Positions 5,745-27,236 of a stretch of DNA of 64,000 nucleotides are shown piece after piece. The stretch is from positions 11,865-75,864 of the IMG/VR virus record IMGVR_UViG_2791355118_000001; one strand, 5' to 3'. Source of the DNA: a virus. Lineage: Duplodnaviria; Caudoviricetes. The notes below the pieces were generated by a model that saw only the letters and a program-made list of their open reading frames with translations, ran no database searches and was not told the DNA's origin. Position 1 is the stretch's first letter. Each line of letters begins with the position of its first letter. The translations under genes and the position numbers were made by a program.

Positions 5745-7136
5745 CTACATCAGCATGGTGCGGGCATGTGCCTGGCGCAGCTGCGACTCCATCGAACGGA
5801 TGGAGCGCGACGCCGCCGCCAGCGTGTCCGCCCATTTGTCGGCCTTGGTGGGATCGACCGACTTCAAGACGATGCACTCGCCGTCCTTGAAGCCGCCGGC
5901 GATCGCGGCGATGATCCGCTCGACCGTCTTCTCCATCCTGCTCATGGCGGCGATATCGTCCTTCGACGGCTCCGGCCTGTCGTCGTCGAACATGCAGCCC
6001 TGCTCGATCCTGTCGCGGACGGCTTGCGCCGCCGCCTTGATGCTCGACCAGTCTTTCAGCTTGCCGCTGGAGAACAGCTTCACGATGTTGACCTGATCGG
6101 CCGTGGGGAGGTCGACGAGGTCGTTTGCATGGCCGAGCGGGAAGGCACCGCTATCGACCAGCTTCTGGATCGTCTCGTCCAGATTAAGCAGCGCCGTGCG
6201 GGCCTTGATGCGCGTCGGCTGGACGCCGATGTCCTTCGCCAGCTGCTCGACCGTCCAGCCGCGGTCGATCATCGCGTGAAACGCCCGCGCTTCCTCCAGC
6301 GGCTTGATGTCGGCGCGGGCGAGGTTTTCCACGATCGCCTGCAGCGCCATCTCGTTGTCGTCGATCTTGACGACCTCGCACAGAATGTCGGCCGCCTCGA
6401 TCAGCTGGTGAGCGCGCCAGCGGCGCTCCCCACCGACGATCTCATAGACCGCCCGGCGGCTTGGCGAGGCCGAGGGCTCGACGTTGTCGGACGCTTGTAG
6501 CGCTTCGTCTGAGCTGTTCGCCGATCCAGTCGTCGTGCCGCCACCATTGATCTCCGAGAAATTTGATTTCCTCCGGCGACCACCGGCACCGATGCCCGTT
6601 GTTGAGGAAGTCGTTGACTCTAACTCCGACTTGCTCTGCCGCGCTTCGTTTGACGTGGAAGTAGGGAAGGCAACAATCGATGACGTGCTTGACCTCTCTC
6701 GCCGCCGCGACGGTCCAGAACTATTGCTCCCAGGTTTTCCCGTGAAAGACTCGGTGTGATGGAGCGACGGTGCCGACGCACCATGCGTCTCGCAACCATC
6801 GGCAGATCGTTGCGCCGTCGTTTGTGACTGACTGGCTGACGACGACGCGGAACCGGTTGCCTTTGACGCTGATCGTTCCCTCTCCGTCGATGAAGCCGAC
6901 CGTGTAGGCGACGACTTCGATTGGAGGTCGAGCAAAGTGTTCCATTCTGCGATGTTCTCCGATGTGATTTCTTCGATTCGACCGTCGGTCAGGAAAACCG
7001 GGCGAACCGTGATGGCCTGGATAAGGCCGCGCTCGCGGATCGATTCAGCCAGCTCGCGAAGCTTCACCGGGTCGAAATGCTTGCGCGGCTGGTCGAGGTT
7101 CGGGATAACAAGGTTGAGGGGGATGCGCTTCTTCAT
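5745..7136 (-). CDS. ParB/Spo0J-family protein with a ~180-aa Ser/Thr-rich in-frame insertion
   Basis: QPRKHFD...LAESIRERGLIQAITVRP, then insert, then YEIVGGERRWRA and ENLARADIKPLEEA plus HTH; ATG at 7136 preceded by CCCTACCACGGAG. Confidence 0.88.
   Translation of the reverse strand: MKKRIPLNLVIPNLDQPRKHFDPVKLRELAESIRERGLIQAITVRPVFLTDGRIEEITSENIAEWNTLLDLQSKSSPTRSASSTERERSASKATGSASSSASQSQTTAQRSADGCETHGASAPSLHHTESFTGKPGSNSSGPSRRRERSSTSSIVAFPTSTSNEARQSKSELESTTSSTTGIGAGGRRRKSNFSEINGGGTTTGSANSSDEALQASDNVEPSASPSRRAVYEIVGGERRWRAHQLIEAADILCEVVKIDDNEMALQAIVENLARADIKPLEEARAFHAMIDRGWTVEQLAKDIGVQPTRIKARTALLNLDETIQKLVDSGAFPLGHANDLVDLPTADQVNIVKLFSSGKLKDWSSIKAAAQAVRDRIEQGCMFDDDRPEPSKDDIAAMSRMEKTVERIIAAIAGGFKDGECIVLKSVDPTKADKWADTLAAASRSIRSMESQLRQAHARTMLM
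6442..6945 (-). pseudogene. LAGLIDADG homing endonuclease with C-terminal HTH-like domain, nested in -1 frame of parB; one internal TAG (6721-6723)
   Basis: AYTVGFIDGEGTI motif. Reading through the TAG gives FWTVAAAREVKHVIDCCLPYFHVKR...WSPEEIKFL...IGEQLRRSATSVRQRRALGL. SD GGAG upstream of ATG 6945. Confidence 0.85.
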
Positions 7137-7143
7137 GGTCGGG

Positions 7144-7205
7144 CTCCGTGGTAGGGAATTTCCTAGCAACATCAATAACTTAGTATGTAACCGATATGGA
7201 TACAA
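7144..7205 (-). promoter_or_regulatory. Cassette head: TTGTAT-17-TAAGTT promoter, operator (7186-7204), RBS motif CCCTACCACGGAG (7144-7156)
   Basis: Same architecture recurs at 10.3, 11.9 and 14.0 kb. Confidence 0.75.
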
Positions 7206-10349: not shown

Positions 10350-10946
10350 TCAGTTCACCTGCTTGAAGCGGGATTCCAGGACGGCGCCGGAAATCGAGAG
10401 CTGGTCGTCGCCGGATTGCACGATTGCCTGATCGACGTGTTCCGGGTTGATGCCGATCACCTTCCAGACGCGGCCCTGGCGGTCGGGCGCCTCGGCGCCG
10501 AGGTAGGACGCGACCTGGAGGGGCTGCGGCGGCTGGCGGAGGCGGTATTGCGCCGGCAGCTTGGGATGGTGCCAACCGCAGCCCTCGGCCTCCAGGCCAT
10601 GTTCGAACACTTCGAGCCGGAGCTTTTCTTTCAGCCAGACCGAGATGTAGGCGCGATGGCAATACTGGTTGTCGGTCGGGGCCTCGTAGCAGAGCAGGGC
10701 GACGTCCCTGCCGCCCGAGAGGTCTTCCATCTTGGCGACGATCCGGCCAGGATGGAGCCTGTCGAGGCCTTCGAAGTAGAGCTGCTTATACTCGCGCTCG
10801 CTGGCGGTCTTGAACCATTCGCCTGGGGCGAGTTCGGGCATTTTGCGGTAGCCCGCCGGATATCCTCGCGGCGTGCCCCTCGACACTCCGATTTTCTGGA
10901 TTTCGGGCGGGAGCTTGGTGAGCCAGGAGCTGGTGAAAATGCGCAT
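10350..10946 (-). CDS. DUF488-family protein
   Basis: MRIFTSSW...IGVSRGTP...ELAP...LLCYE...CHR motifs; RBS-motif variant at 10959-10969. Confidence 0.75.
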   Translation of the reverse strand: MRIFTSSWLTKLPPEIQKIGVSRGTPRGYPAGYRKMPELAPGEWFKTASEREYKQLYFEGLDRLHPGRIVAKMEDLSGGRDVALLCYEAPTDNQYCHRAYISVWLKEKLRLEVFEHGLEAEGCGWHHPKLPAQYRLRQPPQPLQVASYLGAEAPDRQGRVWKVIGINPEHVDQAIVQSGDDQLSISGAVLESRFKQVN

Positions 10947-11052
10947 CTTCGACTCTTTCGGTGGTAGGGCTTTGGACAGGTCCAAATGTAAATCCGGTGA
11001 ACTTCTCAAGCAACCAAGATGACACTGTGTGTTACCATTTTGGTACGTTGCC

Positions 11053-11850: not shown

Positions 11851-11898
11851 CTCCGTGGTAGGGATAACGATCCTATGATGTAACCAATTTGGTTACAA
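11851..11898 (-). promoter_or_regulatory. Cassette head: perfect operator TGTAACC-AATTT-GGTTACA (11879-11897), TTGTAA-17-TAGGAT promoter, RBS motif
   Basis: Directly visible. Confidence 0.8.
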
Positions 11899-14491: not shown

Positions 14492-15754
14492 GTGGCTGAA
14501 GAAGCCATCGTTTCTGCCGATCCCCTTTATCTGACTGCGCTCGCAAGCCTCGGCGCAAGCGTGCCAGAACGTCTGACGGCCTTTGTCCCCAATAACAGTA
14601 TCGCCGTCCTTCCTTTCGTGAACATAAGTGGCGAGACCGCTGAGGAGCAGTTCACCGACGGCCTGACCGAAGACATCATAACGGACCTATCAAATGTCTC
14701 GGGCTTTCTCGTCATCGCACGCAATTCAACGTTCGCATACAAAGGCAAATCCGCTGATGTTCGTGAGATCGCTCGCGACCTAGGTGTCAAATACATACTT
14801 GAAGGTAGCGCCCGGCGATCCGACAAACGCCTTCGCATCAATGTGCAGCTTATCGACGGTGCAGACCGGGGCAATCACGTCTGGGCCGAACGCTTTGATC
14901 GGGAACTATCTGATATTTTTGAGCTGCAAGACGAAGTTACCCGACGAGTTGTGGAAGCGATTTCCGGCAAGATAGGCGTAAAAAACATTTCTTCGCGGTC
15001 AAAGCCATCCAATCTCGAGGCCTATGACCTTTGCGTTAGGTCGCGAGGAAAATGGGACATTTCGAGATCAGACACCAATGAGGCGTCTGCTGATCTGGAG
15101 CGTGCTGTCTCGCTGGACCCAAATTATTGCGAGGCCCACAGCAATCTTGCCGTCTCACTGCTACACGGCTGGATGATTTGGGGAGGGCCGCAGATGCCCG
15201 GCCGCGCCAAGGCTCTGGTGCACGCGCGACGAGCGGTGGAAATCGACCCGGATGATTCTCACGCTCGCGCGATTCTAGCTTACGTTCAGCTTTATGAGCG
15301 CAATTGGGATGAAGCAAAGCTCCAACTAGATGCTGCGGTTCGGCTAAATCCCAACGACGCACATGCGGTTGCGTTGAAAGGTGAGCTTCAATTCTACTTA
15401 GGCAATCCGCAAGCGGCGCTGGTGGCTTGTGCGGAGGCACTGCGTTTGAATCCTCGTCCGCCGGGTGGGTATTTCTGGATCATGGGAATGGCGCAAATAT
15501 CCTCCGGTCAGTACGAAGAAGCTGTAGTGTCCTTGAGCCGGGAAGAAACCTATGGGACGGGTTCGAGAGAGTCTCTGATTGCCGCGCTTGCCCTTTCCGG
15601 TCGCCTCTCTGAGGCACAGGAGGAAGCTCGTCTATTTCTTACGGTCAATCCAAATTGGAGGTTCGGTGATCTGGCGGCGAACTCACCCTTCAGAGAGGTG
15701 AGCATTGGGCAGCCATTCATTGGTGGTTGGCGTTTGGCGGGCCTACCAGAGTAG
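14492..15754 (+). CDS. TolB-like + TPR protein (C-terminal architecture of rhizobial class III adenylate cyclases, no cyclase domain)
   Basis: SIAVLPFVNIS...DGLTEDIITDLS...VIARNSTF...WAERFDR followed by TPRs; start uncertain. Confidence 0.8.
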   Translation: MAEEAIVSADPLYLTALASLGASVPERLTAFVPNNSIAVLPFVNISGETAEEQFTDGLTEDIITDLSNVSGFLVIARNSTFAYKGKSADVREIARDLGVKYILEGSARRSDKRLRINVQLIDGADRGNHVWAERFDRELSDIFELQDEVTRRVVEAISGKIGVKNISSRSKPSNLEAYDLCVRSRGKWDISRSDTNEASADLERAVSLDPNYCEAHSNLAVSLLHGWMIWGGPQMPGRAKALVHARRAVEIDPDDSHARAILAYVQLYERNWDEAKLQLDAAVRLNPNDAHAVALKGELQFYLGNPQAALVACAEALRLNPRPPGGYFWIMGMAQISSGQYEEAVVSLSREETYGTGSRESLIAALALSGRLSEAQEEARLFLTVNPNWRFGDLAANSPFREVSIGQPFIGGWRLAGLPE

Positions 15755-15855
15755 GCAACGCGGGTCCTCTCGCAAACATCGAAAAAGCGCCTCGGATAAG
15801 CTCCCGGCCTCTTCCCATTGACAGGCACTACAACACCCGTAAACTCGAATGGTGG

Positions 15856-17229
15856 ATGAAAGTAGCTTTCGTTATGCCCGACGAAAAGCCAACGCTTACG
15901 CTTCCCCTAGTGGGCATAGACCCGCTTCTGTTAGACGCGTTCTCGCAATATGAAGGGCCATCCCAACAAAACTCACTGAGACAAGATCGAACCTCTACCG
16001 GCGCTGGGGCGAAGATCGTCGACAGGATGGGCGCAGGACTGGAGCTCGATGCTCCGCCACACGCGCCGGTCCCAATTTTCGCATCTATCGCGGTACTTCC
16101 ATTCTCCGACGTCGGGGGCGGATCGGATCACGCGTATTTCGCCGAGGGAATATCCGAGGACATCCTGACCGAACTTTCGCGATTTAGAGGCTTGTTGGTC
16201 ATCGCGAGAAATTCGTCATTCGCGTTCAAGGGTGAAAACGTCGATATCAGGGCCGTCGCAAAAGAGCTGAACGTCGACTACGTCGCGACGGGCAGTGTGC
16301 GGCGAGCGGGGAGCAGGGTCCGGGTGGCTGTTCAACTGACCTATGCTCCTACTGGGCATGAAGTTTGGGCCGAGCGCTATGATCGCGATGTCGTAGACAT
16401 ATTCGCCGTGCAGGACGACATTGTCAGGACGGTTGCGGTGACGCTTGAAGCGCGCCTCGGGCAGGCAATAGCAAGTCACGCGGCCCCTCGGAGTGTTCCG
16501 ACGTTGGCCGCGTATGAATGTATCCTGTTGGCGCGAAAGTACGATGAGTTGCATGATTCAGCCCGCGCCAGGCCCTTTGCAGAGAGGGCGCTCGCCCTTG
16601 ATCCAAGTTCATCGCAAGCTCATTCCGCAATGAGCTATTGTGCCTACATCGATTGGTTGCAAGAACCCGATGACGAAACCCTCGAAAAGATGGTCGCGTA
16701 TGCGAATGCCGCCGTGCTGCTCGATAGGGGGGACGCTTCTGCTGAAGCACTTTTGGGCATGGCTCTGACATGTCAGCAGAAGTATGACGAAGCGGGCTCT
16801 CATCTCCAGCGCGCTCTAAGCCTTAATCCGGGTGAAACGAAAGCGCTGGCCTATTATTCAGAGTGGCTCGTTCGCACGGGCGACGCCGAAGAGGCTCTGC
16901 GGAACATGGACGAGGCCCTTTTGCGAGACCCTATTCCGCCGCCATGGCATTGGGAGATCCGCGGAATGGCGTTCTTAGTGCTGGAAAGGTACGCCGAAGC
17001 CATTCAAGCTTTCGCCCGTCAGACGAGGCAATTCTGGTACATCGCCGCCTACCTTGCGATCTGTTTCGCTAGGCTTGGCAGGATGAATGAAGCTACAGCC
17101 GAACTGAATAAGGCGCTACAGGTTGTACCTGATCACGAAACTCTTCGCATTCAAGTTGTGAACGAGTTTGTCAGCCAGGGCACCCGCGATAAACTTTCTT
17201 ACGGGCTTTCCCTCGCCGGGCTCGACTAA
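15856..17229 (+). CDS. Second TolB-like + TPR protein
   Basis: SIAVLPFSD...EGISEDILTELSRF...VIARNSSF...WAERYDR followed by TPRs; start uncertain. Confidence 0.8.
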   Translation: MKVAFVMPDEKPTLTLPLVGIDPLLLDAFSQYEGPSQQNSLRQDRTSTGAGAKIVDRMGAGLELDAPPHAPVPIFASIAVLPFSDVGGGSDHAYFAEGISEDILTELSRFRGLLVIARNSSFAFKGENVDIRAVAKELNVDYVATGSVRRAGSRVRVAVQLTYAPTGHEVWAERYDRDVVDIFAVQDDIVRTVAVTLEARLGQAIASHAAPRSVPTLAAYECILLARKYDELHDSARARPFAERALALDPSSSQAHSAMSYCAYIDWLQEPDDETLEKMVAYANAAVLLDRGDASAEALLGMALTCQQKYDEAGSHLQRALSLNPGETKALAYYSEWLVRTGDAEEALRNMDEALLRDPIPPPWHWEIRGMAFLVLERYAEAIQAFARQTRQFWYIAAYLAICFARLGRMNEATAELNKALQVVPDHETLRIQVVNEFVSQGTRDKLSYGLSLAGLD

Positions 17230-17286: not shown

Positions 17287-17658
17287 ATGCCAATGGCGAT
17301 TCACGAAGAACTGCAGCGTTTCTGGGAAGCCTATGTCGCTGCCTATCGTGCCGCCGACGCTTCAGCATTAGGAGCGATGTTCACTCCCGACGCCGAGGTG
17401 CATTCGCCCTATGCACCCCCAGCTCGCGGCCGTGATGAGATTGCGGCCCTCCATGCAGCTTGGACACAGGGCCACGGAGAAGCAGGCGACAAGACGATGA
17501 GGGTCATACAAGCAGGTATGTCGGGCGAATTGGCTTGGAGTCTCGCAAGCTATTCGGAAGGTCTTGAGACCGGAAACGGTACGTCGGTCTCTATCTTCGA
17601 GCAACAAGGCAACGGTTCGTGGCTGATACGAATGTGCTCCCTCAATAGCACCGATTGA
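17287..17658 (+). CDS. NTF2/SnoaL-like (DUF4440-type) protein
   Basis: YVAAYRAADA...FTPDA...GRDEI...GSWLI pattern. Confidence 0.75.
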   Translation: MPMAIHEELQRFWEAYVAAYRAADASALGAMFTPDAEVHSPYAPPARGRDEIAALHAAWTQGHGEAGDKTMRVIQAGMSGELAWSLASYSEGLETGNGTSVSIFEQQGNGSWLIRMCSLNSTD

Positions 17659-18503: not shown

Positions 18504-18755
18504 TCAGTTGGTGTTGAAGCGGTCCGGCGATGGCTGAATGCCGGCCTCTTTCGCCACAAAGCCCACGACGTCGAGCACGTCATCAGAGCTTAGTTTCTCG
18601 ATGGATTCGGCAAAGCGCCGCTTGAAATAGGTCTGGTGCTCGGCGCCGGCGTAGCGGGCCATGCCGATGGCAGCGGCGAAGGTGATCGCTTCGAGGCGCG
18701 CGCCGCCGAAGCCGGACTTCTGATGGAGGCTGGCGGCGAGGTCGTTGAGGGTCAT
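18504..18755 (-). CDS. Phage hypothetical protein
   Basis: ATG after motif variant CCCTGCCACGGA (18766-18777); operator AGTAACC-GTTCT-GGTTACA at 18778-18796. Confidence 0.7.
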   Translation of the reverse strand: MTLNDLAASLHQKSGFGGARLEAITFAAAIGMARYAGAEHQTYFKRRFAESIEKLSSDDVLDVVGFVAKEAGIQPSPDRFNTN

Positions 18756-18852
18756 TGGTCGGTCGTCCGTGGCAGGGAGTAACCGTTCTGGTTACAAATA
18801 TCTTATTCGGTTACACCCCCGATGCAAGAGAAAAAGCGAGGCCCTTGCCGTT

Positions 18853-20166
18853 ATGTTTCAAGGCGTTGTGCCGAAGGAGTGCATCGCGCAAATCCTTCGC
18901 GTCTCTGAGGTCGACAAGTGGGGACGGGTCTATAACTGCTGCTCCGGAACGTTCCGGTTCGAGCAGATCACCCTCGCCACTTTCCCCGGCGTCGAGATGC
19001 ATTCCAACGACGTCAGCCTCTACTCGTCAGCCATCGCCGGCTACGTGCTGGGCAAGCCGATAGACTATGAGTTTCACGGCGCGCTCGACTTCGTGAACGA
19101 GTTCAATTTTCGGGAGCCCGATCAGCGCCTCGCCGCGTTGGCCGTCGGGTTCAATCTCGGCCGCTTCGCTGGCGGCAAGGCGAACGCCTACAAGACCAGC
19201 CATCGCGAGCACCTGGTTGAGAACTTCGGCAGCTATGTCGAGCGCACCCTGGAGAAGGTCCGCAAGCTTCCGGGCATGATCCCGATCAAGAGCTATTCGC
19301 CGCGCGACTGGATCCTGCATCTCGAGGAGGCGATCGACCGCAAGGCCGCGATCTTCTCCTACCCGCCGTTCTACAAAGGCGGCTACGAAAAGATGTTCGA
19401 GTTCCTGGCCGAGAACATCAAATGGGGAGCTCCCCGATATGAGCTGTTCGACCCCAAGGCGCTGCGCGGTCTCATCGAGCGCGTGCGGCAGGCGGGCGTC
19501 CCCTACTGCATCCTCTCGGACCAGATTTACGACGATCTGAAACCGGAGCTGGAATTCGTCTCCGGGCGCGGCCATCCGCACTACTGCTACGTGTCGACAG
19601 GCAAGTCGTCCTACCTGCAGCTCGTGCCGCGGTCGGCGCCGTTCCGCTACAAGCCGATCGACATCGACAAGATCAAGCCGGATTCGGTCGTGACGATTGG
19701 CCGGGCCGATGCCGCCCAGATGACGTTCCTCAAGGACGTTTACCTCAAGAAGGGCATCACCCACACGCCCGGCATGGTGAACTATCTGGTGCGGGTCGAC
19801 GACATGCTGGTCGGCGGCCTGATCTACAACCTCGACAAATTCGCGAAGCGGTCGATCTACCTGCTGTCCGACTTCGCCATCTCGCGCGAGGGCAGGCTGT
19901 CAAAGCTAGTCACCAGGCTCGCCTGCAACGGCGAGCTGCTGCGCGACATGGGCAAGCGCTTCATCGACCGTTTCGACAAGGTGCAAACCTCGGCGTTCTC
20001 GGATCATCCCGTCTCGATGAAATATCGCGGCATCTTCGAGCAGACCAAGCGCGAAGAGATCGACGAGCCGGAAGGCAAGTTCCGCCTGCATTACGTCGGC
20101 GCCCGCATCGACGAGACGCCGCAACAAGCGTTCGAGTGGTGGTATGGCAAGCACTTCAAGCGTTGA
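18853..20166 (+). CDS. Putative DNA-modification protein: Dam-like methyltransferase fold plus C-terminal possible GNAT/Mom-like domain
   Basis: MFQGVVP N-terminus, CCSGTF (motif I-like), HSNDVS, SYPPFYKGGYE (motif IV-like); C-terminal VDDMLVGGLIY...YLLSDF...RLSKLV...SMKYRG. Confidence 0.65.
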   Translation: MFQGVVPKECIAQILRVSEVDKWGRVYNCCSGTFRFEQITLATFPGVEMHSNDVSLYSSAIAGYVLGKPIDYEFHGALDFVNEFNFREPDQRLAALAVGFNLGRFAGGKANAYKTSHREHLVENFGSYVERTLEKVRKLPGMIPIKSYSPRDWILHLEEAIDRKAAIFSYPPFYKGGYEKMFEFLAENIKWGAPRYELFDPKALRGLIERVRQAGVPYCILSDQIYDDLKPELEFVSGRGHPHYCYVSTGKSSYLQLVPRSAPFRYKPIDIDKIKPDSVVTIGRADAAQMTFLKDVYLKKGITHTPGMVNYLVRVDDMLVGGLIYNLDKFAKRSIYLLSDFAISREGRLSKLVTRLACNGELLRDMGKRFIDRFDKVQTSAFSDHPVSMKYRGIFEQTKREEIDEPEGKFRLHYVGARIDETPQQAFEWWYGKHFKR

Positions 20167-20884
20167 CTGGAAGGCCCTTGATATCGAGGCGCGCCAGGTT
20201 GATCCGAACACGCTCCGCCGCCGCGAGAAGAACGCGCACTACATGGCACCGGCCATGTTCAAGCGCCTTGTCGAGAACGTCAAAATCGATGGCCGCCTCA
20301 CCACCACGGTCCTGGCGTGCGAGAACAAGGACGGCTCTCTCGAGATCCTGTCGGGACATCATCGCACGGCCGCGGCGATCGAGGCCGGCTTGCCGATGGT
20401 CGACGCGCTCGTGATCACCACCCCGTTGAGCGAAAAGCGCAAGGTGGCGATCCAGCTCAGCCACAACTCGATCAACGGCGAGGATGACCAGTCGCTGCTT
20501 GCCCAGCTCTACGCCTCGCTCGACATTGATGCGAAGAAGTTCTCCGGTCTCGATGACAGCGTGCTCTCTGGTGACAAGGGACCAGGTGCGACAGCGCTCG
20601 GCGGGGCGAACATCAAATACGACGAGCTGCTGTTCTCCTTCCTGCCGGAAGACCGCGTGCGTTTCGAGGTAGAGCTGGAGGCACTCGCCAAAAGGGCCAA
20701 GCGCTTCCGCATCCATGCCGCGCCGCAGTCGAAGTTCGACGAGTTCTTCGACGCCATCGTGCGCACCAAGAGCCAGCTCAACATCGTCAATTCGGGCATC
20801 GCCCTCTCGGTCATGGCGCGCCTTGCCGGCGAGCGGCTGGATCAACTCGAAGCGGAAGCGGAGGACAAATCCGATGCGGCATGA
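20144..20884 (+). CDS. ParB/Srx N-terminal-domain protein, terminase-associated
   Basis: KNAHYM...LVENVK...EILSGHHR motif. Confidence 0.8.
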   Translation: MASTSSVDWKALDIEARQVDPNTLRRREKNAHYMAPAMFKRLVENVKIDGRLTTTVLACENKDGSLEILSGHHRTAAAIEAGLPMVDALVITTPLSEKRKVAIQLSHNSINGEDDQSLLAQLYASLDIDAKKFSGLDDSVLSGDKGPGATALGGANIKYDELLFSFLPEDRVRFEVELEALAKRAKRFRIHAAPQSKFDEFFDAIVRTKSQLNIVNSGIALSVMARLAGERLDQLEAEAEDKSDAA

Positions 20885-21023
20885 ACTGCCCAGCTTGCGC
20901 GGCTCGTTTCCCAAGCCCGAAGCGCCCATCGCCGGCCCGCCATTCGGCACCCCGTTTATCGTGGTGCTCGCCATCCTGTCGTTCACCTTCGTCATGTGCC
21001 TCGCACGCGTCCTCCTTCCATGA
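20874..21023 (+). CDS. Small membrane protein (49 aa)
   Basis: SD GGAGG; hydrophobic C-terminus FIVVLAILSFTFVMCL. Confidence 0.5.
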   Translation: MRHELPSLRGSFPKPEAPIAGPPFGTPFIVVLAILSFTFVMCLARVLLP

Positions 21024-21273
21024 TCCAGATGCATTCGTGTGTGTGTAACGTAGTGCCGGTGGTTAGCGTGGCCGCAGCGTCAAGCATTATGGGTCAGTTT
21101 GCATTTCGGCGCATGTTTGCAGACCTTATGCCCAGCAAGGCTTTGCGGCCCGATTTGACCAGCACAATCGCATTCGGTTCGGCTCGCGGCATGATGTCCA
21201 TGCGTTGCGGGATGGGTGGCAAAAAAAAGAGCCATCCCGAACATTCCGAACACTCGCACGCGCGAGTCGTCCG

Positions 21274-21909
21274 GTGATCAAGACCACGACCAGCGTGACG
21301 ACATCGAAGCCGAAGGCCAAGGCCAAGGCTGAAGCGGCCACAGCGAAGCCGAAAGCCGAGCCGAAAAAAAAGCCGGCGCGCGGCAAGAACAAGCCGGCCG
21401 GCAAGGCATCGCCCCCTGTGGCGCCGAAGCCTGCTCCCAAACCTGAGCCGACGCCACTGCCGAAGCCGGCGGAAGGCAACCGGGGCGGGGCATCGCCGAA
21501 GCTGACCGAGCGCGATGTGCCGCGCGTGATCGCGATGCTGCGTCAGTGCGGCGGCATTAAGACGGTCGCGGCGGAGAAGCTGAACGTCGGCCGCACCACG
21601 CTCTACGCCTTCCTGAACGAGCATCCTGAAATCCAGGAGGCCGATTCCGAGATCGCCGACGAGCTGCTCGACGTTGCCGAGGGCCAGGTGGTGATCGCGC
21701 TTCGCTCTGGCGATTTGCAGACCGTGCGCTGGTACCTGGAGCTCAAAGGCAAGGACCGGGGCTATGTGCGCCGCGTCGAGCAGACCGGCAAGAACGGCGG
21801 TCCGGTCGAGACGCAAGCACGGGCGAACCCGAAAGACTACACCGACGAGGAGTTGGACGTCCTGATTGCGGCAGCGCAACGACGGAAGGCCGCCGAAGCG
21901 CAAGGGTGA
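21274..21909 (+). CDS. Terminase small subunit-like protein (Lys/Pro/Ala-rich N-terminus, HTH)
   Basis: IKTVAAEKLNVGRTTLY HTH; KDRGYV...EQTGKNGGPVE tail typical of small terminases; start uncertain. Confidence 0.75.
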   Translation: MIKTTTSVTTSKPKAKAKAEAATAKPKAEPKKKPARGKNKPAGKASPPVAPKPAPKPEPTPLPKPAEGNRGGASPKLTERDVPRVIAMLRQCGGIKTVAAEKLNVGRTTLYAFLNEHPEIQEADSEIADELLDVAEGQVVIALRSGDLQTVRWYLELKGKDRGYVRRVEQTGKNGGPVETQARANPKDYTDEELDVLIAAAQRRKAAEAQG

Positions 21910-21914
21910 ATTGA

Positions 21915-23564
21915 ATGGCGCAGAAGTCTGCCGCCGCCCGCGCGCCGCTCATTGCCCCCGACCTCGAAGACCTGCTGATCGAGCGAGACCGGCGCAAGGC
22001 CAAGGGATCGTTCGCCGAGTTCGTTAAGATGGCCTGGCTCGAACTCGAGCCAGAGACGCCGCTGGTATGGAACTGGCACATGCAGGTGGTTTGCGACCAT
22101 CTGCAAGCGCTGGTCGAGGGCAAGTTTCTCGAGCTGGGCCTCCGCAACCGCCTCGTCATCAACGTGCCGCCCGGCACATCGAAATCGCTTCTCGTCTCGG
22201 TGCTGTTGCAGGCCTGGGAATGGGGACCGGCCGGCCGGCCCGGCATGCGGTATCTGTCGACAGCGTATAACGACGGGCCGGTGAATCGCGACACCCGCAA
22301 ATGCCGCGATCTGATCCTGTCGCGCTGGTACCAGGATCGCTGGCCCGAGGTTTATCTCAGCCGAAGGGCCGAGACCTCGTTTGCCAACAACAGCACCGGC
22401 ACCCGCGAGGGCGTGGCGTTTGGCTCGCTCACCTCGCAGCGTGGCGATCGCCTGATCATCGACGATCCGCACTCGACCGAGACGGCGGAATCGGCGACCG
22501 AGCGCACCGCCACAACCCGCAAGTTTCGCGAGGGCGCGCAAAACCGCCTGAACGACCAGAAGCGCAGCGTGATCATCGTCATCATGCAGCGCCTGCACGA
22601 GGCCGACGTCACCGGCGTCATCCTCGACGGCAAGATGGATTATGTTCATCTCTGCCTGCCGATGCAGTTCGAGCCGGACCGTTGCTGCTACACCCCGGTC
22701 AAGGTTTCCAGCTCCGTCGGCGAGCCGATCCTGGCGCGCTATGACGCGAGCAAGCAACACTGGTACGGCGAGAACGACAATCTGCCAGACGAGCGTCGCG
22801 CCGAGATCGAGGCGATCAAGCTCCAGCTCGTCTGGCGGCAGGATCCTCGCACCGTCGACGGCGAGATCCTCGATCCGATCCGCTTCCCGCCTGATGAGCT
22901 GAAACAGCTCTACAACGACATGACGTCGTATGCCGTCGCGGGCCAGTATCAGCAGCGCCCAGCGCCGCGCGCCGGCGGCATGTTCCAGCGCGCCTGGTTC
23001 GAGGGGCGCATCGTCAGGGCAGCGCCGAAGGGTACGATCTGGGTCCGCCATTGGGACTTGGCCGGGACTCGAGGCGGCACTGGCGCGCGCACCGCCGGCG
23101 TCAAGCTCGGCCGCGATCCCGAGGGCCGGTACTATGTCGGCCATGTCGTGACGCTTCGCGAGGAAGGCAAGTCGGTCCGCAAGACCATCGAGACGCAGGC
23201 CGCGCTCGACGGGAAGACGGTCCACATCAGCCTGCCGCAAGATCCTGGTCAGGCTGGCAAGGCGCAGGTGCAGGATTTCGTCGCCCAGCTCGCCGGCTAC
23301 AAGGTGCATGCCGAGGGCGAGACCGGCGACAAGGTCACGCGCGCCGAGCCGTTCGCCGCTCAATGCGAGCACGGCAACGTCTACATCGTCGAAGGTGAGT
23401 GGAACACGCTCTACCTCGACGAACTCTGCCTGTTCCCAGCCTCCAAGCTGATGGACCAGGTCGACGCATCTTCCGGAGCCTTTACGAGGCTGCTCAACAT
23501 CAAGGGGGCCATGGTGATCAGCGACGACGTTCTTCGGCGCGCTGCCCAGCCGGGGCCGCGATGA
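21915..23564 (+). CDS. terL: Terminase large subunit
   Basis: INVPPGTSKS Walker A, LIIDDPH Walker B, IMQRLH, YQQRP, HWDLA nuclease motif, DQVDA. Confidence 0.95.
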   Translation: MAQKSAAARAPLIAPDLEDLLIERDRRKAKGSFAEFVKMAWLELEPETPLVWNWHMQVVCDHLQALVEGKFLELGLRNRLVINVPPGTSKSLLVSVLLQAWEWGPAGRPGMRYLSTAYNDGPVNRDTRKCRDLILSRWYQDRWPEVYLSRRAETSFANNSTGTREGVAFGSLTSQRGDRLIIDDPHSTETAESATERTATTRKFREGAQNRLNDQKRSVIIVIMQRLHEADVTGVILDGKMDYVHLCLPMQFEPDRCCYTPVKVSSSVGEPILARYDASKQHWYGENDNLPDERRAEIEAIKLQLVWRQDPRTVDGEILDPIRFPPDELKQLYNDMTSYAVAGQYQQRPAPRAGGMFQRAWFEGRIVRAAPKGTIWVRHWDLAGTRGGTGARTAGVKLGRDPEGRYYVGHVVTLREEGKSVRKTIETQAALDGKTVHISLPQDPGQAGKAQVQDFVAQLAGYKVHAEGETGDKVTRAEPFAAQCEHGNVYIVEGEWNTLYLDELCLFPASKLMDQVDASSGAFTRLLNIKGAMVISDDVLRRAAQPGPR

Positions 23565-25138
23565 TCAAGAAACTTTGGGGCGCATTGCGCCGTCGTTGGA
23601 CATGCGGACCAGTCGCCGACGTCCCTGCGTCGGCGCCGCCGGCAGCGGTTCCTCCAGGAGCGCGTCCTCCCACGCGCATCTCGGATGCGATGCTGTCGGC
23701 GATCCGCGCGCAAGCGGCCGCACCGAAGCAGCCGGTGCCGGTCTTCACCCTGCCCAAGCACCCGGATGGCGTGCTCCCGTCGGGCAACACGGGGCTTGCC
23801 ATGGACAGCGCCGTCGGCGCGGTTCAGAGCTGGGCGAACGCCTTCGCGCTGAGCGGCTACTTCTCGGAGGGGATCACCTTCCTCGGCTACGCCTACCTCT
23901 CGGAGCTGGCTCAGCGCCCGGAATACCGGGTGATCTCCGAGACCATCGCGACCGAGATGACGCGCAAATGGATCCGCTTCACCTCGAACGACGGCGAGGA
24001 TAAGGCCGACAAGATCGCGGAGCTGGAGGCCGAGTTCAAGCGCCTCAACGTGCGCGACATCTTTTGCCGCGCCGCCGAGCAGGATGGCTTCTTCGGCCGT
24101 GGTCACATCTACATCGACACCGGTGACACTGACGACTCGGACGAGCTGCAAAAGCCGATCGGCGACGGCTGGGACAAGCTCAGCGTCACCAAGTTCTCCA
24201 AGAAGCCGATCAAGGCGCTGCGCACCGTCGAGGCGGTCTGGTGCTATCCGACCAACTACAACTCGAGCGATCCGCTCAAGGACAACTGGTATCGGCCCGA
24301 CAGCTGGTATGTGCAGGCCAAGATCGTCCACACTTCACGCCTCATCACGTTGATCGGGCGCGAAGTGCCCGACCTGTTGAAGCCGACCTATTCGTTCGGC
24401 GGCTTGTCGCTGTCGCAGATGTGCAAGCCGTATGTCGACAACTGGCTGGAGACGCGCCAGTCGGTGAACGACATCATCTCGATGTTCAGCGTTTTCCTGC
24501 TCGCCACCAATCTCGGCGAGACACTGCAGGCGGATGGCGACCAGCTCTTTCGGCGCGCTGAACTTTTCAACTTGGTCAGGTCCAATCGCGGCTTGATGAT
24601 GATCGATAAGGATAGCGAGGACTTCAAGAACGTCGCGGCTCCGCTCTCCGGGCTCGACGTGCTCCAGGCGCAGGCGCAAGAGCACATGGCGTCGGTGAGC
24701 CACATTCCGCTGGTGAAGCTGCTCGGCACGCAGCCAGCGGGCCTCAACGCCTCATCGGAGGGCGAAATCCAGGTCTTCTACGACTACGTGCACTCGTTCC
24801 AGGAACACCTGTTCCGGCAGCCGCTGCACCGCCTTCTCGGCCTGGTGATGATCTCGCTTTGGGGCGAGACCGACCCCGGCATCGACTTCGAGTTTGAGAA
24901 GCTCGAAGAGACCAACGAGAAGGAAGCGGCCGAGGTTGAAAAGATCAAGGCCGAGCGCGACGTCATCCTGATTGACGGCGGCGTGATCTCGCCCGAGGAA
25001 TCGCGCCAGCGCGTTGGCGGCGATCCCGACTCTGACTTCTCCTCGATCGATGTCGAGGACCTGCCCGACCTTCTCCAAGAGGAGGAGGAAGGCCTGGTGG
25101 TCAAGGGCGCGTCGGAGGAACAAAACGAGGCGGCATGA
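23561..25138 (+). CDS. Portal protein, DUF1073 family
   Basis: Follows terL; FLGYAYLSELAQRPEY...IPLVKLLG-QPAGLNASSEGE motifs. Confidence 0.88.
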   Translation: MIKKLWGALRRRWTCGPVADVPASAPPAAVPPGARPPTRISDAMLSAIRAQAAAPKQPVPVFTLPKHPDGVLPSGNTGLAMDSAVGAVQSWANAFALSGYFSEGITFLGYAYLSELAQRPEYRVISETIATEMTRKWIRFTSNDGEDKADKIAELEAEFKRLNVRDIFCRAAEQDGFFGRGHIYIDTGDTDDSDELQKPIGDGWDKLSVTKFSKKPIKALRTVEAVWCYPTNYNSSDPLKDNWYRPDSWYVQAKIVHTSRLITLIGREVPDLLKPTYSFGGLSLSQMCKPYVDNWLETRQSVNDIISMFSVFLLATNLGETLQADGDQLFRRAELFNLVRSNRGLMMIDKDSEDFKNVAAPLSGLDVLQAQAQEHMASVSHIPLVKLLGTQPAGLNASSEGEIQVFYDYVHSFQEHLFRQPLHRLLGLVMISLWGETDPGIDFEFEKLEETNEKEAAEVEKIKAERDVILIDGGVISPEESRQRVGGDPDSDFSSIDVEDLPDLLQEEEEGLVVKGASEEQNEAA

Positions 25139-26643: not shown

Positions 26644-26958
26644 TCAGGCGGCAGCATGCAGCGTCGGGATGGCCTCGATCTCGGCGCTGAGGGCCTTCTC
26701 GGCCTGCTCCAGATCATAGTTGCGCTGGAGGTTGAGCCAGAGCACCGGACCGTTGCCGACCAGCTTTCCAATGCGGAGAGCCATCGCGACCGTGATGGGC
26801 TGCTTTTCGTCCAGGATGTCGTAGAGCGTGCGGCGCGAAATGCCGAGCAGCTTCGCGATCTCCGACTTCGGCTTGTCGAGCGCCGGAAGCACGTCTTCGC
26901 GCAGAAGCTCGCCGGGATGCATTGCGGGCAGGCTGCGCTTGATGTGTGGAGTGTTCAT
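26644..26958 (-). CDS. higA: HigA-family antitoxin (HTH-XRE)
   Basis: MHPGELLREDVL...ISRRTLYDIL...MALRIGK...WLNLQ.YDL. Confidence 0.92.
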   Translation of the reverse strand: MNTPHIKRSLPAMHPGELLREDVLPALDKPKSEIAKLLGISRRTLYDILDEKQPITVAMALRIGKLVGNGPVLWLNLQRNYDLEQAEKALSAEIEAIPTLHAAA

Positions 26959-27236
26959 CAGTGGTAATCCTCTAGATGGATGTCGGTAGCGTCTTCGCCG
27001 TCCCAACCGAAGGTGATGCGCCAGTTTCCGGTCACCCGAACAGAATAGCGGCCTTTGTCTTGGCCGGCGAGTCCGTGGAAATGATAGCCGGGCAGGTCCA
27101 TGTCCTGAGGCCGCGCTGCCGCTTCCAGAGCCCGCAAGATGCGAGCGACACGCTTGTCATCCTGAACGCTAAGGCCGCGTGCTTTGCCGGTCTCGAAGAA
27201 GCGTTGCAGGGCCTTCCTTTTGAATGACTTGATCAT
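26958..27236 (-). CDS. higB: HigB/RelE-family toxin
   Basis: MIKSFKRKAL...YSVRVTGNWRITF...LEDYH; toxin precedes antitoxin. Confidence 0.92.
   Translation of the reverse strand: MIKSFKRKALQRFFETGKARGLSVQDDKRVARILRALEAAARPQDMDLPGYHFHGLAGQDKGRYSVRVTGNWRITFGWDGEDATDIHLEDYH

Follow-up and report, generated by a model that had tools for sequence, protein, structure and literature searches.

Directly upstream of the terminase genes in a Caudoviricetes virus record lies a two-gene module that probably carries out DNA base modification of some kind. The stretch analysed, hereafter the window, comprises 64,000 nucleotides (nt) of IMG/VR record IMGVR_UViG_2791355118_000001 (positions 11,865 to 75,864 of that record), and all coordinates below are window positions. 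The first gene encodes a fusion of a Dam-like and a GNAT-like domain, here called the enzyme, and the second a ParB-like partner. For this pair we favour, at roughly even confidence, a Mom-like, Gly-tRNA-dependent DNA hypermodification by a GNAT unrelated to phage Mu Mom, fused to a Dam-fold module and served by an obligate ParB-like partner. The reading draws on the observed folds, selection on both domains, loss of the canonical motif IV residue, gene linkage and the tRNA-Gly genes present in a third of the lineages, from which the chemistry is inferred at every step. A preliminary description, made from the sequence alone, had proposed a modification beyond simple N6-methyladenine (m6A); this fits the apparent loss of the motif IV D/N residue from the enzyme and the tRNA-Gly genes in related modules.

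Both halves of the enzyme belong to catalogued families. Residues 2-254 match PF22555 (DAM-like-phage1; E 6e-53, 180.3 bits) and residues 278-434 match PF22559 (GNAT-phage-like; E 5e-45, 153.7 bits), each against a gathering cut-off of 27; these sequence matches are strong and exclude chance. Residues 4-435, nearly the full length, match PHROG 7858 (E 2.2e-71). This family and PHROG 7405, which the partner matches, both carry the label 'unknown function'. The 437-residue open reading frame (ORF) was confirmed, and the CCSGTF, HSNDVS and SYPPFY motifs singled out in the preliminary description coincide with the best-conserved blocks of the family. An alternative, longer version would start at a TTG at 18745; because homologues begin with MFxGxVP, as does the product of the ATG at 18853, the latter was taken as the start.

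An AlphaFold2 model of the enzyme, built on 30 homologues (mean pLDDT 88.7, pTM 0.63), was compared with 48,161 PDB representatives by VIA-align Z score and was also searched with Foldseek. For residues 1-251 the best structure was 7m6b, 'Mcbe1' (Z 14.1, 207 residues aligned), which we take to be the N4-cytosine methylase M.CbeI, followed by DpnM (2dpm, Z 12.5), E. coli Dam (2ore, 12.2) and T4 Dam (1q0s, 12.1), with generic Rossmann methyltransferases at about 10. The modelled domain combines a class I methyltransferase fold with a Dam-type helical target-recognition insert, and 180-207 of its residues align to 1q0s, 2ore, 2dpm and 7m6b. The PF22555 match and the top rank of Dam-family structures bear out the Dam-like methyltransferase fold proposed earlier. 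Fold and helical insert are thereby shared with the alpha-class D12 amino-methyltransferases Dam, DpnM, T4 Dam and M.CbeI at Z 12-14, but the likeness does not extend to sequence, and only the enzyme described here carries a fused GNAT domain. Residues 1-260 gave no match to PF02086 (MethyltransfD12) up to E 10; PDB sequence searches found nothing with the single protein, and nothing at E 10 with a 30-sequence profile. An hhalign comparison of the family with E. coli Dam returned a probability of 0.2%, a weak test in that the template was a single sequence.

Conservation was assessed across 153 family members sharing less than 80% identity. Invariant are C30, D53, D152, P172, W191, G321, R392 and Y414. 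In the Dam-fold domain the motif I block C30-S31-G32-x-F34 (with R35 next), the motif II pair N52-D53, and D152, P172, Y178-E179 and W191 are invariant or nearly so; the same is true in the GNAT domain of G321, S339-D340, K351, M389-K390-Y391-R392-G393, Y414 and W430. With so many invariant residues in both domains, both look functional.

Topology suggests that the enzyme shares with D12 enzymes a glycine-containing motif I after strand 1, an acidic motif II residue ending strand 2 and a PP motif after strand 4. The last of these is where they part, with [F/Y]PP[F/T] here and (D/N/S)PP(Y/F/W) there. In the family the block reads [F/Y]170-P-P-[T/F]173-[Y/F]-K-G-G-Y-E, and in the window Y170-P171-P172-F173, then K-G-G-Y178-E179. 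Its place after strand 4 of the model makes it the likely counterpart of motif IV, (D/N/S)PP(Y/F/W), in amino-methyltransferases, and the residue by which those enzymes position the target amine would then be lost: position 170 is Phe in 127 sequences, Tyr in 20, Ser in four, and Asn and Trp in one each. As this position is never Asp, a plain m6A methylase is unlikely. Seven of the 120 top homologues are 688-724 aa long, and in the three inspected (P0008, P0010 and P0031) an intein of about 275-285 aa with a Hint domain sits directly after FPPFxK. Inteins tend to settle in functionally critical sites. Loci L013, L074 and L087 also have such inteins, and one of the intein-bearing homologues comes from Pseudaminobacter salicylatoxidans. 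A search for longer fusions, of low power, found no family match among proteins of 766-2185 aa.

The extra C-terminal alpha/beta domain of the preliminary description comprises about 160 aa and is separate in the model, and its tentative assignment as a GNAT is now supported by both the PF22559 match and structure search. Foldseek returned GNAT matches at probability 1.0, and residues 278-420 aligned best with 1y9k (Z 11.2). Mu Mom (8bv8_B) ranked second (Z 10.7, root-mean-square deviation 3.6, 141 residues aligned), level with many other GNATs. The comparison with Mom drawn earlier thus stands at the level of the fold and fails at that of sequence: hhalign gave the family a probability of 0.15% against Mu Mom, and Mom belongs to a separate Pfam family, PF25680 (Mom E 2.4e-75), which the window protein does not match. 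In the window, the motif A-type loop would be R345-E-G-R348-L-S350-K351, a register assigned without superposition. Across the family this loop has R in 99 sequences, two variable positions, R in 89 or K in 61, a variable position, S in 115 or A in 36, and K in 152 of the 153; its fourth position is basic, whereas the canonical GNAT loop (Q/R-x-x-G-x-G/A) has Gly there.

Mu Mom is a GNAT that moves glycine from Gly-tRNA-Gly to N6 of adenine in double-stranded DNA (dsDNA), and the adduct then rearranges to 6-NcmdA (PMC13219725). The authors regard the co-substrate as not predictable from structure, and their paper mentions neither DUF488 nor ParB (PMC13219725). Mom and the module enzyme have in common the GNAT fold, a late phage gene and a presumed post-replicative action on dsDNA, and the linkage of tRNA-Gly genes to relatives of the module, described below, may parallel the Gly-tRNA-Gly co-substrate of Mom. 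They differ in that Mom is a stand-alone dimer with a DNA-binding insertion resembling a helix-turn-helix (HTH), whereas the module GNAT is a compact domain carried on a Dam-fold module, with a ParB-like partner gene.

The ParB-domain gene that had been reported to overlap the enzyme gene does so by 23 nt (partner ATG at 20144, enzyme TGA ending at 20166), and its product has a ParB/Srx fold by structure search. The partner matches PHROG 7405 (E 4e-58) and, at about 1e-10 (best E 1.7e-10), several ParB-like PHROGs; it matches no Pfam family at E 0.01, PF02195 (ParB_N) included. In its model (mean pLDDT 85.3), residues 9-132 align with the ParB N-domain of pNOB8 (5k5d_B, Z 11.6, 116 residues aligned), CTP-binding PadC (6ryk_B, 10.5), KorB-CTP (8qa8_A, 10.0) and sulfiredoxin (6ky4_A, 9.1). 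This N-domain, of the NTP-binding type, contains the motifs N30-A-x-x-M34, G71-x-H73-R74 and Q104-L-x-H107-N108. G71, H73 and R74 are invariant in 36 sequences, and the motif to which they belong is probably the equivalent of the Box II phosphate-binding motif (GxxR). The C-terminal helices, residues 168-245, gave only unspecific structure matches (Z <6), and no HTH was recognised in them.

To see how regularly the two genes travel together, we compiled 243 related loci, from 3 cultured phages and three sets of 80 contigs: the best 80 of at least 532 IMG/VR relatives nearest the window, 80 from one-genome-per-species GTDB genomes, and, with a distant Dehalococcoidia member as reference, the nearest 80 of at least 562 IMG/VR contigs (the second IMG/VR set). 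No canonical Dam was found in these loci by phmmer with E. coli Dam as query. By a partner profile, the partner gene lies on the same strand directly downstream of the enzyme gene in 83/83 loci of the cultured phages and the IMG/VR set nearest the window, in 74/75 GTDB loci with at least 800 nt of room, and in 80/80 of the second IMG/VR set, where crude ORF calls placed 77/80 partners within 700 nt. The sole locus with room but without a partner is L095. Natural enzyme-partner fusions also exist, in P0079 (674 aa, recovered independently by both protein searches) and in L082. The coupling of enzyme and partner is near-obligate.

Such pairing has a precedent. One subclass of phage thymine dioxygenases (5mYOX) acts on dsDNA only with the help of a cognate ParB-like protein, which has a nucleotide-binding domain and a C-terminal domain with no evident DNA-binding domain (PMC13229309). 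In phages, moreover, fusion of ParB-CTPase folds to methyltransferases is common, and these folds can take CTP, ATP or GTP as ligand (PMC12704722). The 5mYOX176/ParB176 pair resembles the present one in setting a base-modifying enzyme (presumptively so in our case) beside a cognate ParB-fold gene, and in a partner made of a nucleotide-binding domain and a C-terminal helical part without an evident DNA-binding domain. It differs in its enzyme, an Fe/2-oxoglutarate dioxygenase rather than a Dam-fold/GNAT fusion, and in a GERR motif where the partner here has GxHR; dependence on the partner is demonstrated there and would be expected here (PMC13229309).

Glycine tRNA genes in related modules hint at the chemistry. 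ARAGORN found 82 tRNA genes in the 243 loci. With the module taken to extend from 1.2 kb before the enzyme start to 3.4 kb after it, 45/48 of those inside are tRNA-Gly, against 1/34 outside. The three others inside are a tRNA-Lys(CUU) in Faecalibacterium phage FP_Brigit, an undetermined tRNA with an xCC loop and, in the partner-less L095, a tRNA-Met on the opposite strand. When each pair of lineage and amino acid is counted once, there are 17 Gly and 3 other pairs inside the module, compared with a single Gly pair and 16 others outside (Fisher p = 1.3e-6). The 44 loci with a module tRNA-Gly comprise 1/3 of the cultured phages, 1/80 of the IMG/VR set nearest the window, 5/80 of the GTDB set and 37/80 of the second IMG/VR set, and represent 17/48 lineages at 50% enzyme identity or 22/94 at 70%, among them Actinomycetota phages, Alphaproteobacteria, Planctomycetota and Chloroflexota. 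The usual site is on the coding strand between the gene for a DUF488 protein and the enzyme gene, 20-230 nt upstream of the latter, and a few lie just after the ParB-like gene. In Mycobacterium phage Jeon an annotated tRNA-Gly(UCC) abuts the enzyme gene (L002:4893-4964); L131 and L124 are other carriers. The possibility that the module tRNA genes are prophage att sites was dropped in view of their position on the coding strand between DUF488 and enzyme and of the presence of one inside the cultured Jeon genome.

The identity set of bacterial glycyl-tRNA synthetase comprises G1-C72, C2-G71, G3-C70, U73 and C35-C36, and glycine tRNAs with A34 are unusual in bacteria. Of 41 distinct module tRNA-Gly sequences, 39 start with GCG, and among the 37 sequences handled by a simple parser U73 is present in all and an encoded CCA in 27. 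Of the 37 tRNA-Gly that lie no more than 600 nt ahead of the enzyme gene, 19 have the anticodon UCC, nine CCC, eight ACC and one GCC, and a single 50%-identity lineage of 26 loci has all four (UCC 9, CCC 8, ACC 6, GCC 1). Chargeability with glycine is thus kept while decoding drifts, a pattern more in keeping with a co-substrate than with a tRNA for translation. The T-loop triplet is TTC in 29 of the 41 distinct sequences, TGC in four and TCC in three. In staphylococci a UGC triplet marks the non-proteogenic tRNA-Gly that feeds Fem transferases (PMC7826273). The Fem system likewise links tRNA-Gly genes to a GNAT-fold transferase working outside translation, as proposed here, and four of the 41 module tRNAs share its UGC triplet; its target, however, is a peptidoglycan precursor, and most module tRNAs keep a TTC T loop (PMC7826273).

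Since Mom glycylates adenine from Gly-tRNA-Gly and relatives of the module encode tRNA-Gly, we favour a Mom-like, tRNA-dependent reaction. The Mesorhizobium-type prophage would express a post-replicative base-hypermodification module along with its late (packaging) genes. The Dam-fold domain would bind DNA, recognise the site and flip the base, and the GNAT domain would take glycine from charged tRNA-Gly, supplied by the host for the window copy and by the module itself in many relatives. Transfer of the glycine to the exocyclic amine of the presented base, probably adenine, would yield a Mom-like, glycine-derived adduct. The retained pocket of S-adenosylmethionine (SAM) type could serve a second, perhaps SAM-dependent, step or accommodate the aminoacyl-adenosine terminus of the tRNA. 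The ParB/Srx partner would be an indispensable helper, loading the enzyme onto dsDNA or activating it there, as with the ParB-dependent phage thymine dioxygenases, and DUF488-N3a a frequent third enzyme, possibly acting on tRNA or on a nucleic-acid terminus. The likely benefit would be packaged DNA shielded from host nucleases. More tentatively, and somewhat short of even confidence, the module may represent a second, independent class of tRNA-dependent DNA hypermodification, built from a Mom-unrelated GNAT and a Dam fold with a rebuilt motif, a ParB/Srx partner, DUF488 and a private phage tRNA-Gly. A private tRNA-Gly kept for DNA chemistry would explain the wobble drift, the ACC anticodons and the UGC T loops of some copies. 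In the boldest version of this proposal, the former SAM pocket would bind the glycyl-adenosine end of the tRNA.

Several observations weigh against a Mom-like use of Gly-tRNA. The pTM of the model leaves the mutual placement of the Dam-fold and GNAT domains uncertain. Invariant motifs I and II point to a SAM-type ligand, which is superfluous in the proposed scheme. Ordinary acetyl-CoA GNATs resemble the GNAT domain in fold as closely as Mom does, Mom is unrelated to it in sequence, and the motif-B-like K-Y-R-G together with the R-x-x-[KR]-x-[SA]-K loop could, as judged from sequence, equally serve acyl-CoA. The tRNA-Lys(CUU) of FP_Brigit occupies the place where others have tRNA-Gly (L003:4660-4736); together with the SAM synthetase gene upstream of it, it may reflect a variant donor amino acid. 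The window lacks any tRNA gene, and no module tRNA-Gly was found in its lineage (13 loci) or in the largest alphaproteobacterial lineage (52 loci); the inference of glycine is therefore carried over from other lineages. Finally, tRNA-Gly could be the target rather than the donor, given that TacT acetylates Gly-tRNA-Gly (PMC13219725).

Of the competing explanations, a two-cofactor hypermodification without tRNA survives best, and we consider it unlikely. The GNAT domain would use acyl-CoA on the base or on an adduct, the Dam fold would transfer an alkyl group from SAM or an analogue, and the tRNA-Gly would be unrelated cargo. This would accommodate the conserved motifs I and II, the acetyl-CoA enzymes among the top Foldseek and VIA-align GNAT matches (Naa50, RimI and 1y9k), the apparent placement of invariant Y391 of K-Y-R-G at the position of the general-acid Tyr of GNAT motif B, the S-adenosylmethionine synthetase gene annotated in FP_Brigit 2 kb upstream, and the lack of a module tRNA in the lineage of the window. 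However, 45 glycine tRNAs among 48, with a drifting wobble base and spread over 17 lineages, are hard to see as cargo, the same enzyme residues are invariant in lineages with and without the tRNA, and the canonical Q/RxxGxG/A loop is not kept, its fourth position being K/R.

Less probable still is an ordinary orphan methyltransferase producing m6A or N4-methylcytosine, with a non-catalytic or regulatory GNAT-like domain and a ParB-like partner for targeting, akin to phage ParB-methyltransferase fusions near terminases. M.CbeI, DpnM, Dam and T4 Dam are indeed its best structural matches, one UniRef entry is named 'putative antirestriction adenine methyltransferase', and phages often carry ParB-methyltransferase fusions (PMC12704722). 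The family nevertheless has no D at the motif IV position in 153 sequences and N or S in only five, its Dam-fold domain finds neither PF02086 nor a PDB sequence at E 10, and the many invariant polar residues of the GNAT domain are unlike those of a passive appendage.

The neighbourhood of the module bears on a further alternative. As had been described, the window pair lies directly upstream of the small and large terminase genes, and the neighbourhood survey returned, besides the near-obligate ParB-like gene, a frequent DUF488 gene and a place ahead of packaging and head genes. Terminase genes of the window type (terS/terL) lie downstream in 26/75 loci. Among 18 representatives of the remaining lineages, surveyed with counts per family rather than per member, portal (DUF4055, Portal_Mu), terminase (Terminase_6N, TerL_ATPase, GpA) and capsid/protease genes made up most of the largest ORFs lying up to 3 kb downstream, and from this mixture the module appears to stay ahead of packaging genes regardless of terminase family. 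DUF488-N3a (PF22751) was found in 41/56 loci whose upstream flank exceeds 3 kb among the cultured phages and the IMG/VR set nearest the window, in 47/69 GTDB loci and in 44/54 of the second IMG/VR set; most proteobacterial lineages have it in divergent orientation, the others in the direction of the module. A canonical ParB_N + HTH_ParB gene occurs near the module in 14/31 lineage representatives, and the window has one. The constant place in front of terS/terL/portal genes, whichever of several unrelated terminase families these belong to, and the frequent DUF488 could be read as packaging control or DNA-end processing, marking pac/cos sites or termini with DUF488 acting on nucleic-acid ends, rather than as DNA protection. 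We regard this, too, as improbable: the place may merely reflect late timing and is shared by ordinary phage methylases, the module occurs with both headful-type and lambda GpA-type terminases, whose ends differ, and a base-flipping Dam fold suits internal sites.

Least probable of all is a target other than DNA, with the GNAT acetylating or modifying (Gly-)tRNA or protein like TacT-type toxins and the encoded tRNA-Gly as substrate or decoy: the substrate of TacT is Gly-tRNA-Gly (PMC13219725), and tRNA-Gly genes are embedded in the module, but the fusion to a Dam fold bearing a helical target-recognition insert, the obligate ParB-fold partner and the late-operon location speak against it, and no antitoxin-like partner was seen.

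An assignment of DUF488 as an SGNH hydrolase was dropped, having arisen from confusion of its name with that of a different family, DUF4886 (PMC9487903), and a literature search on DUF488 found nothing functional. PF22555 and PF22559 presumably stem from Burroughs and Aravind 2023, as guessed from the Pfam names and neighbouring accessions; that work reportedly predicted that phage members of the RapZ-C/DUF488/DUF4326 clade process DNA ends, which would favour the packaging or end-processing alternative.

The features of the window are listed in the table below. Its nearest genomic relatives, among one-genome-per-species GTDB genomes, are prophages of Mesorhizobium sp. WSM3862 and WSM3860 (98% protein identity). 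Like other PF22555/PF22559 modules, that of the window has a full-length enzyme, the same partner (PHROG 7405) and the same DUF488 subfamily, with C107, E109 and C117-H118-R119 kept, and differs in no essential respect; by its sequence it appears to be an ordinary, intact member of a catalogued family. It differs from other modules in that DUF488 and the canonical ParB gene lie 7.8-13 kb off, with DUF488 7.8 kb upstream of the enzyme pair rather than adjacent, and in having no module tRNA. Between DUF488 and the pair lie a DUF4942 methyltransferase-like gene, two TPR genes and a SnoaL-like gene. The distance from the DUF488 end to the enzyme start is 5,970 nt in WSM3862 and 7,369 nt in WSM3860, and the intervening stretch is therefore best regarded as variable cargo.

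Table. Features of the module and its surroundings in the window
Feature	Position	Strand	Basis or remark
Canonical ParB_N + HTH_ParB protein	5745-7205	-	Domain match
DUF488-N3a protein	10350-11009	-	PF22751 E 3.9e-8; neighbourhood-derived hidden Markov model E 3.5e-35
DUF4942 protein, 563 aa	11909-13600	-	Weak MTS (methyltransferase small domain) match; PHROG 'DNA methyltransferase' matches
Two TPR-repeat proteins	14492-17229	+	Between DUF488 and enzyme pair
SnoaL-like protein	17287-17658		Between DUF488 and enzyme pair
Dam-like/GNAT-like fusion protein, 437 aa	18853-20166	+	Pfam PF22555 + PF22559; PHROG 7858
Dam-fold domain, residues 2-254	18856-19614	+	Pfam, structure alignment, conservation
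GNAT-fold domain, residues 278-434	19684-20154	+	Pfam, Foldseek, structure alignment, conservation
ParB/Srx-fold partner, 246 aa	20144-20884	+	PHROG 7405, AlphaFold model + structure search
Small terminase subunit (terS) candidate	21205-21909	+	HTH_8; weak phrog_309 match
Large terminase subunit (terL)	21915-23564	+	Terminase_6C, TIGR01630, phrog_38
Portal protein	23561-25138	+	Phage_portal_3
NUDIX (N-terminal) + DUF2213 protein, 663 aa	27318-29309	+	Among head genes

Downstream of the pair, terS, terL and portal genes are followed by a gene for a Mu-F-like head protein and about 30 kb of head and tail genes. The portal ORF is open from 23399, and its start is probably the ATG overlapping the terL stop. 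Upstream of the enzyme gene, in a short divergent region between it and an 83-aa minus-strand ORF (18504-18755), the palindrome GTAACC-N5-GGTTAC lies at 18781-18815 with a third GGTTAC 13 nt downstream, and may be an operator. The DUF4942 protein is a second candidate DNA methylase in the window. Inside the head-gene block, at 26644-27236 (minus strand), two small overlapping ORFs of 92 and 120 aa resemble, as judged by eye, a HigB/HigA-type toxin-antitoxin pair. At the far end of the phage block, 54678-58440 (plus strand), are genes for a DUF5131 protein (phrog_2045), a 392-aa protein that matches no family, and a protein resembling ATP-dependent DNA ligases (phrog_114).

The enzyme family is spread over at least 562 IMG/VR contigs and 253 stretches in one-genome-per-species GTDB genomes from many phyla, and cultured phages of Mycobacterium, Gordonia and Faecalibacterium carry the module. 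It is already present in Pfam and PHROGs. A literature search found no experimental paper on PF22555 or PF22559, and none on a tRNA-Gly linked to a ParB/GNAT system besides Mom. What appears to be new here is the linkage of tRNA-Gly genes to relatives of the module. This linkage turns an 'unknown DNA modification' into a specific, testable hypothesis. If the modified base does derive from glycine, Mu would cease to be a special case and tRNA-dependent modification of DNA would be a widespread phage strategy; some phage-encoded tRNAs would be enzyme co-substrates rather than aids to translation, and the ParB-fold proteins that assist DNA-modifying enzymes would gain a second example.

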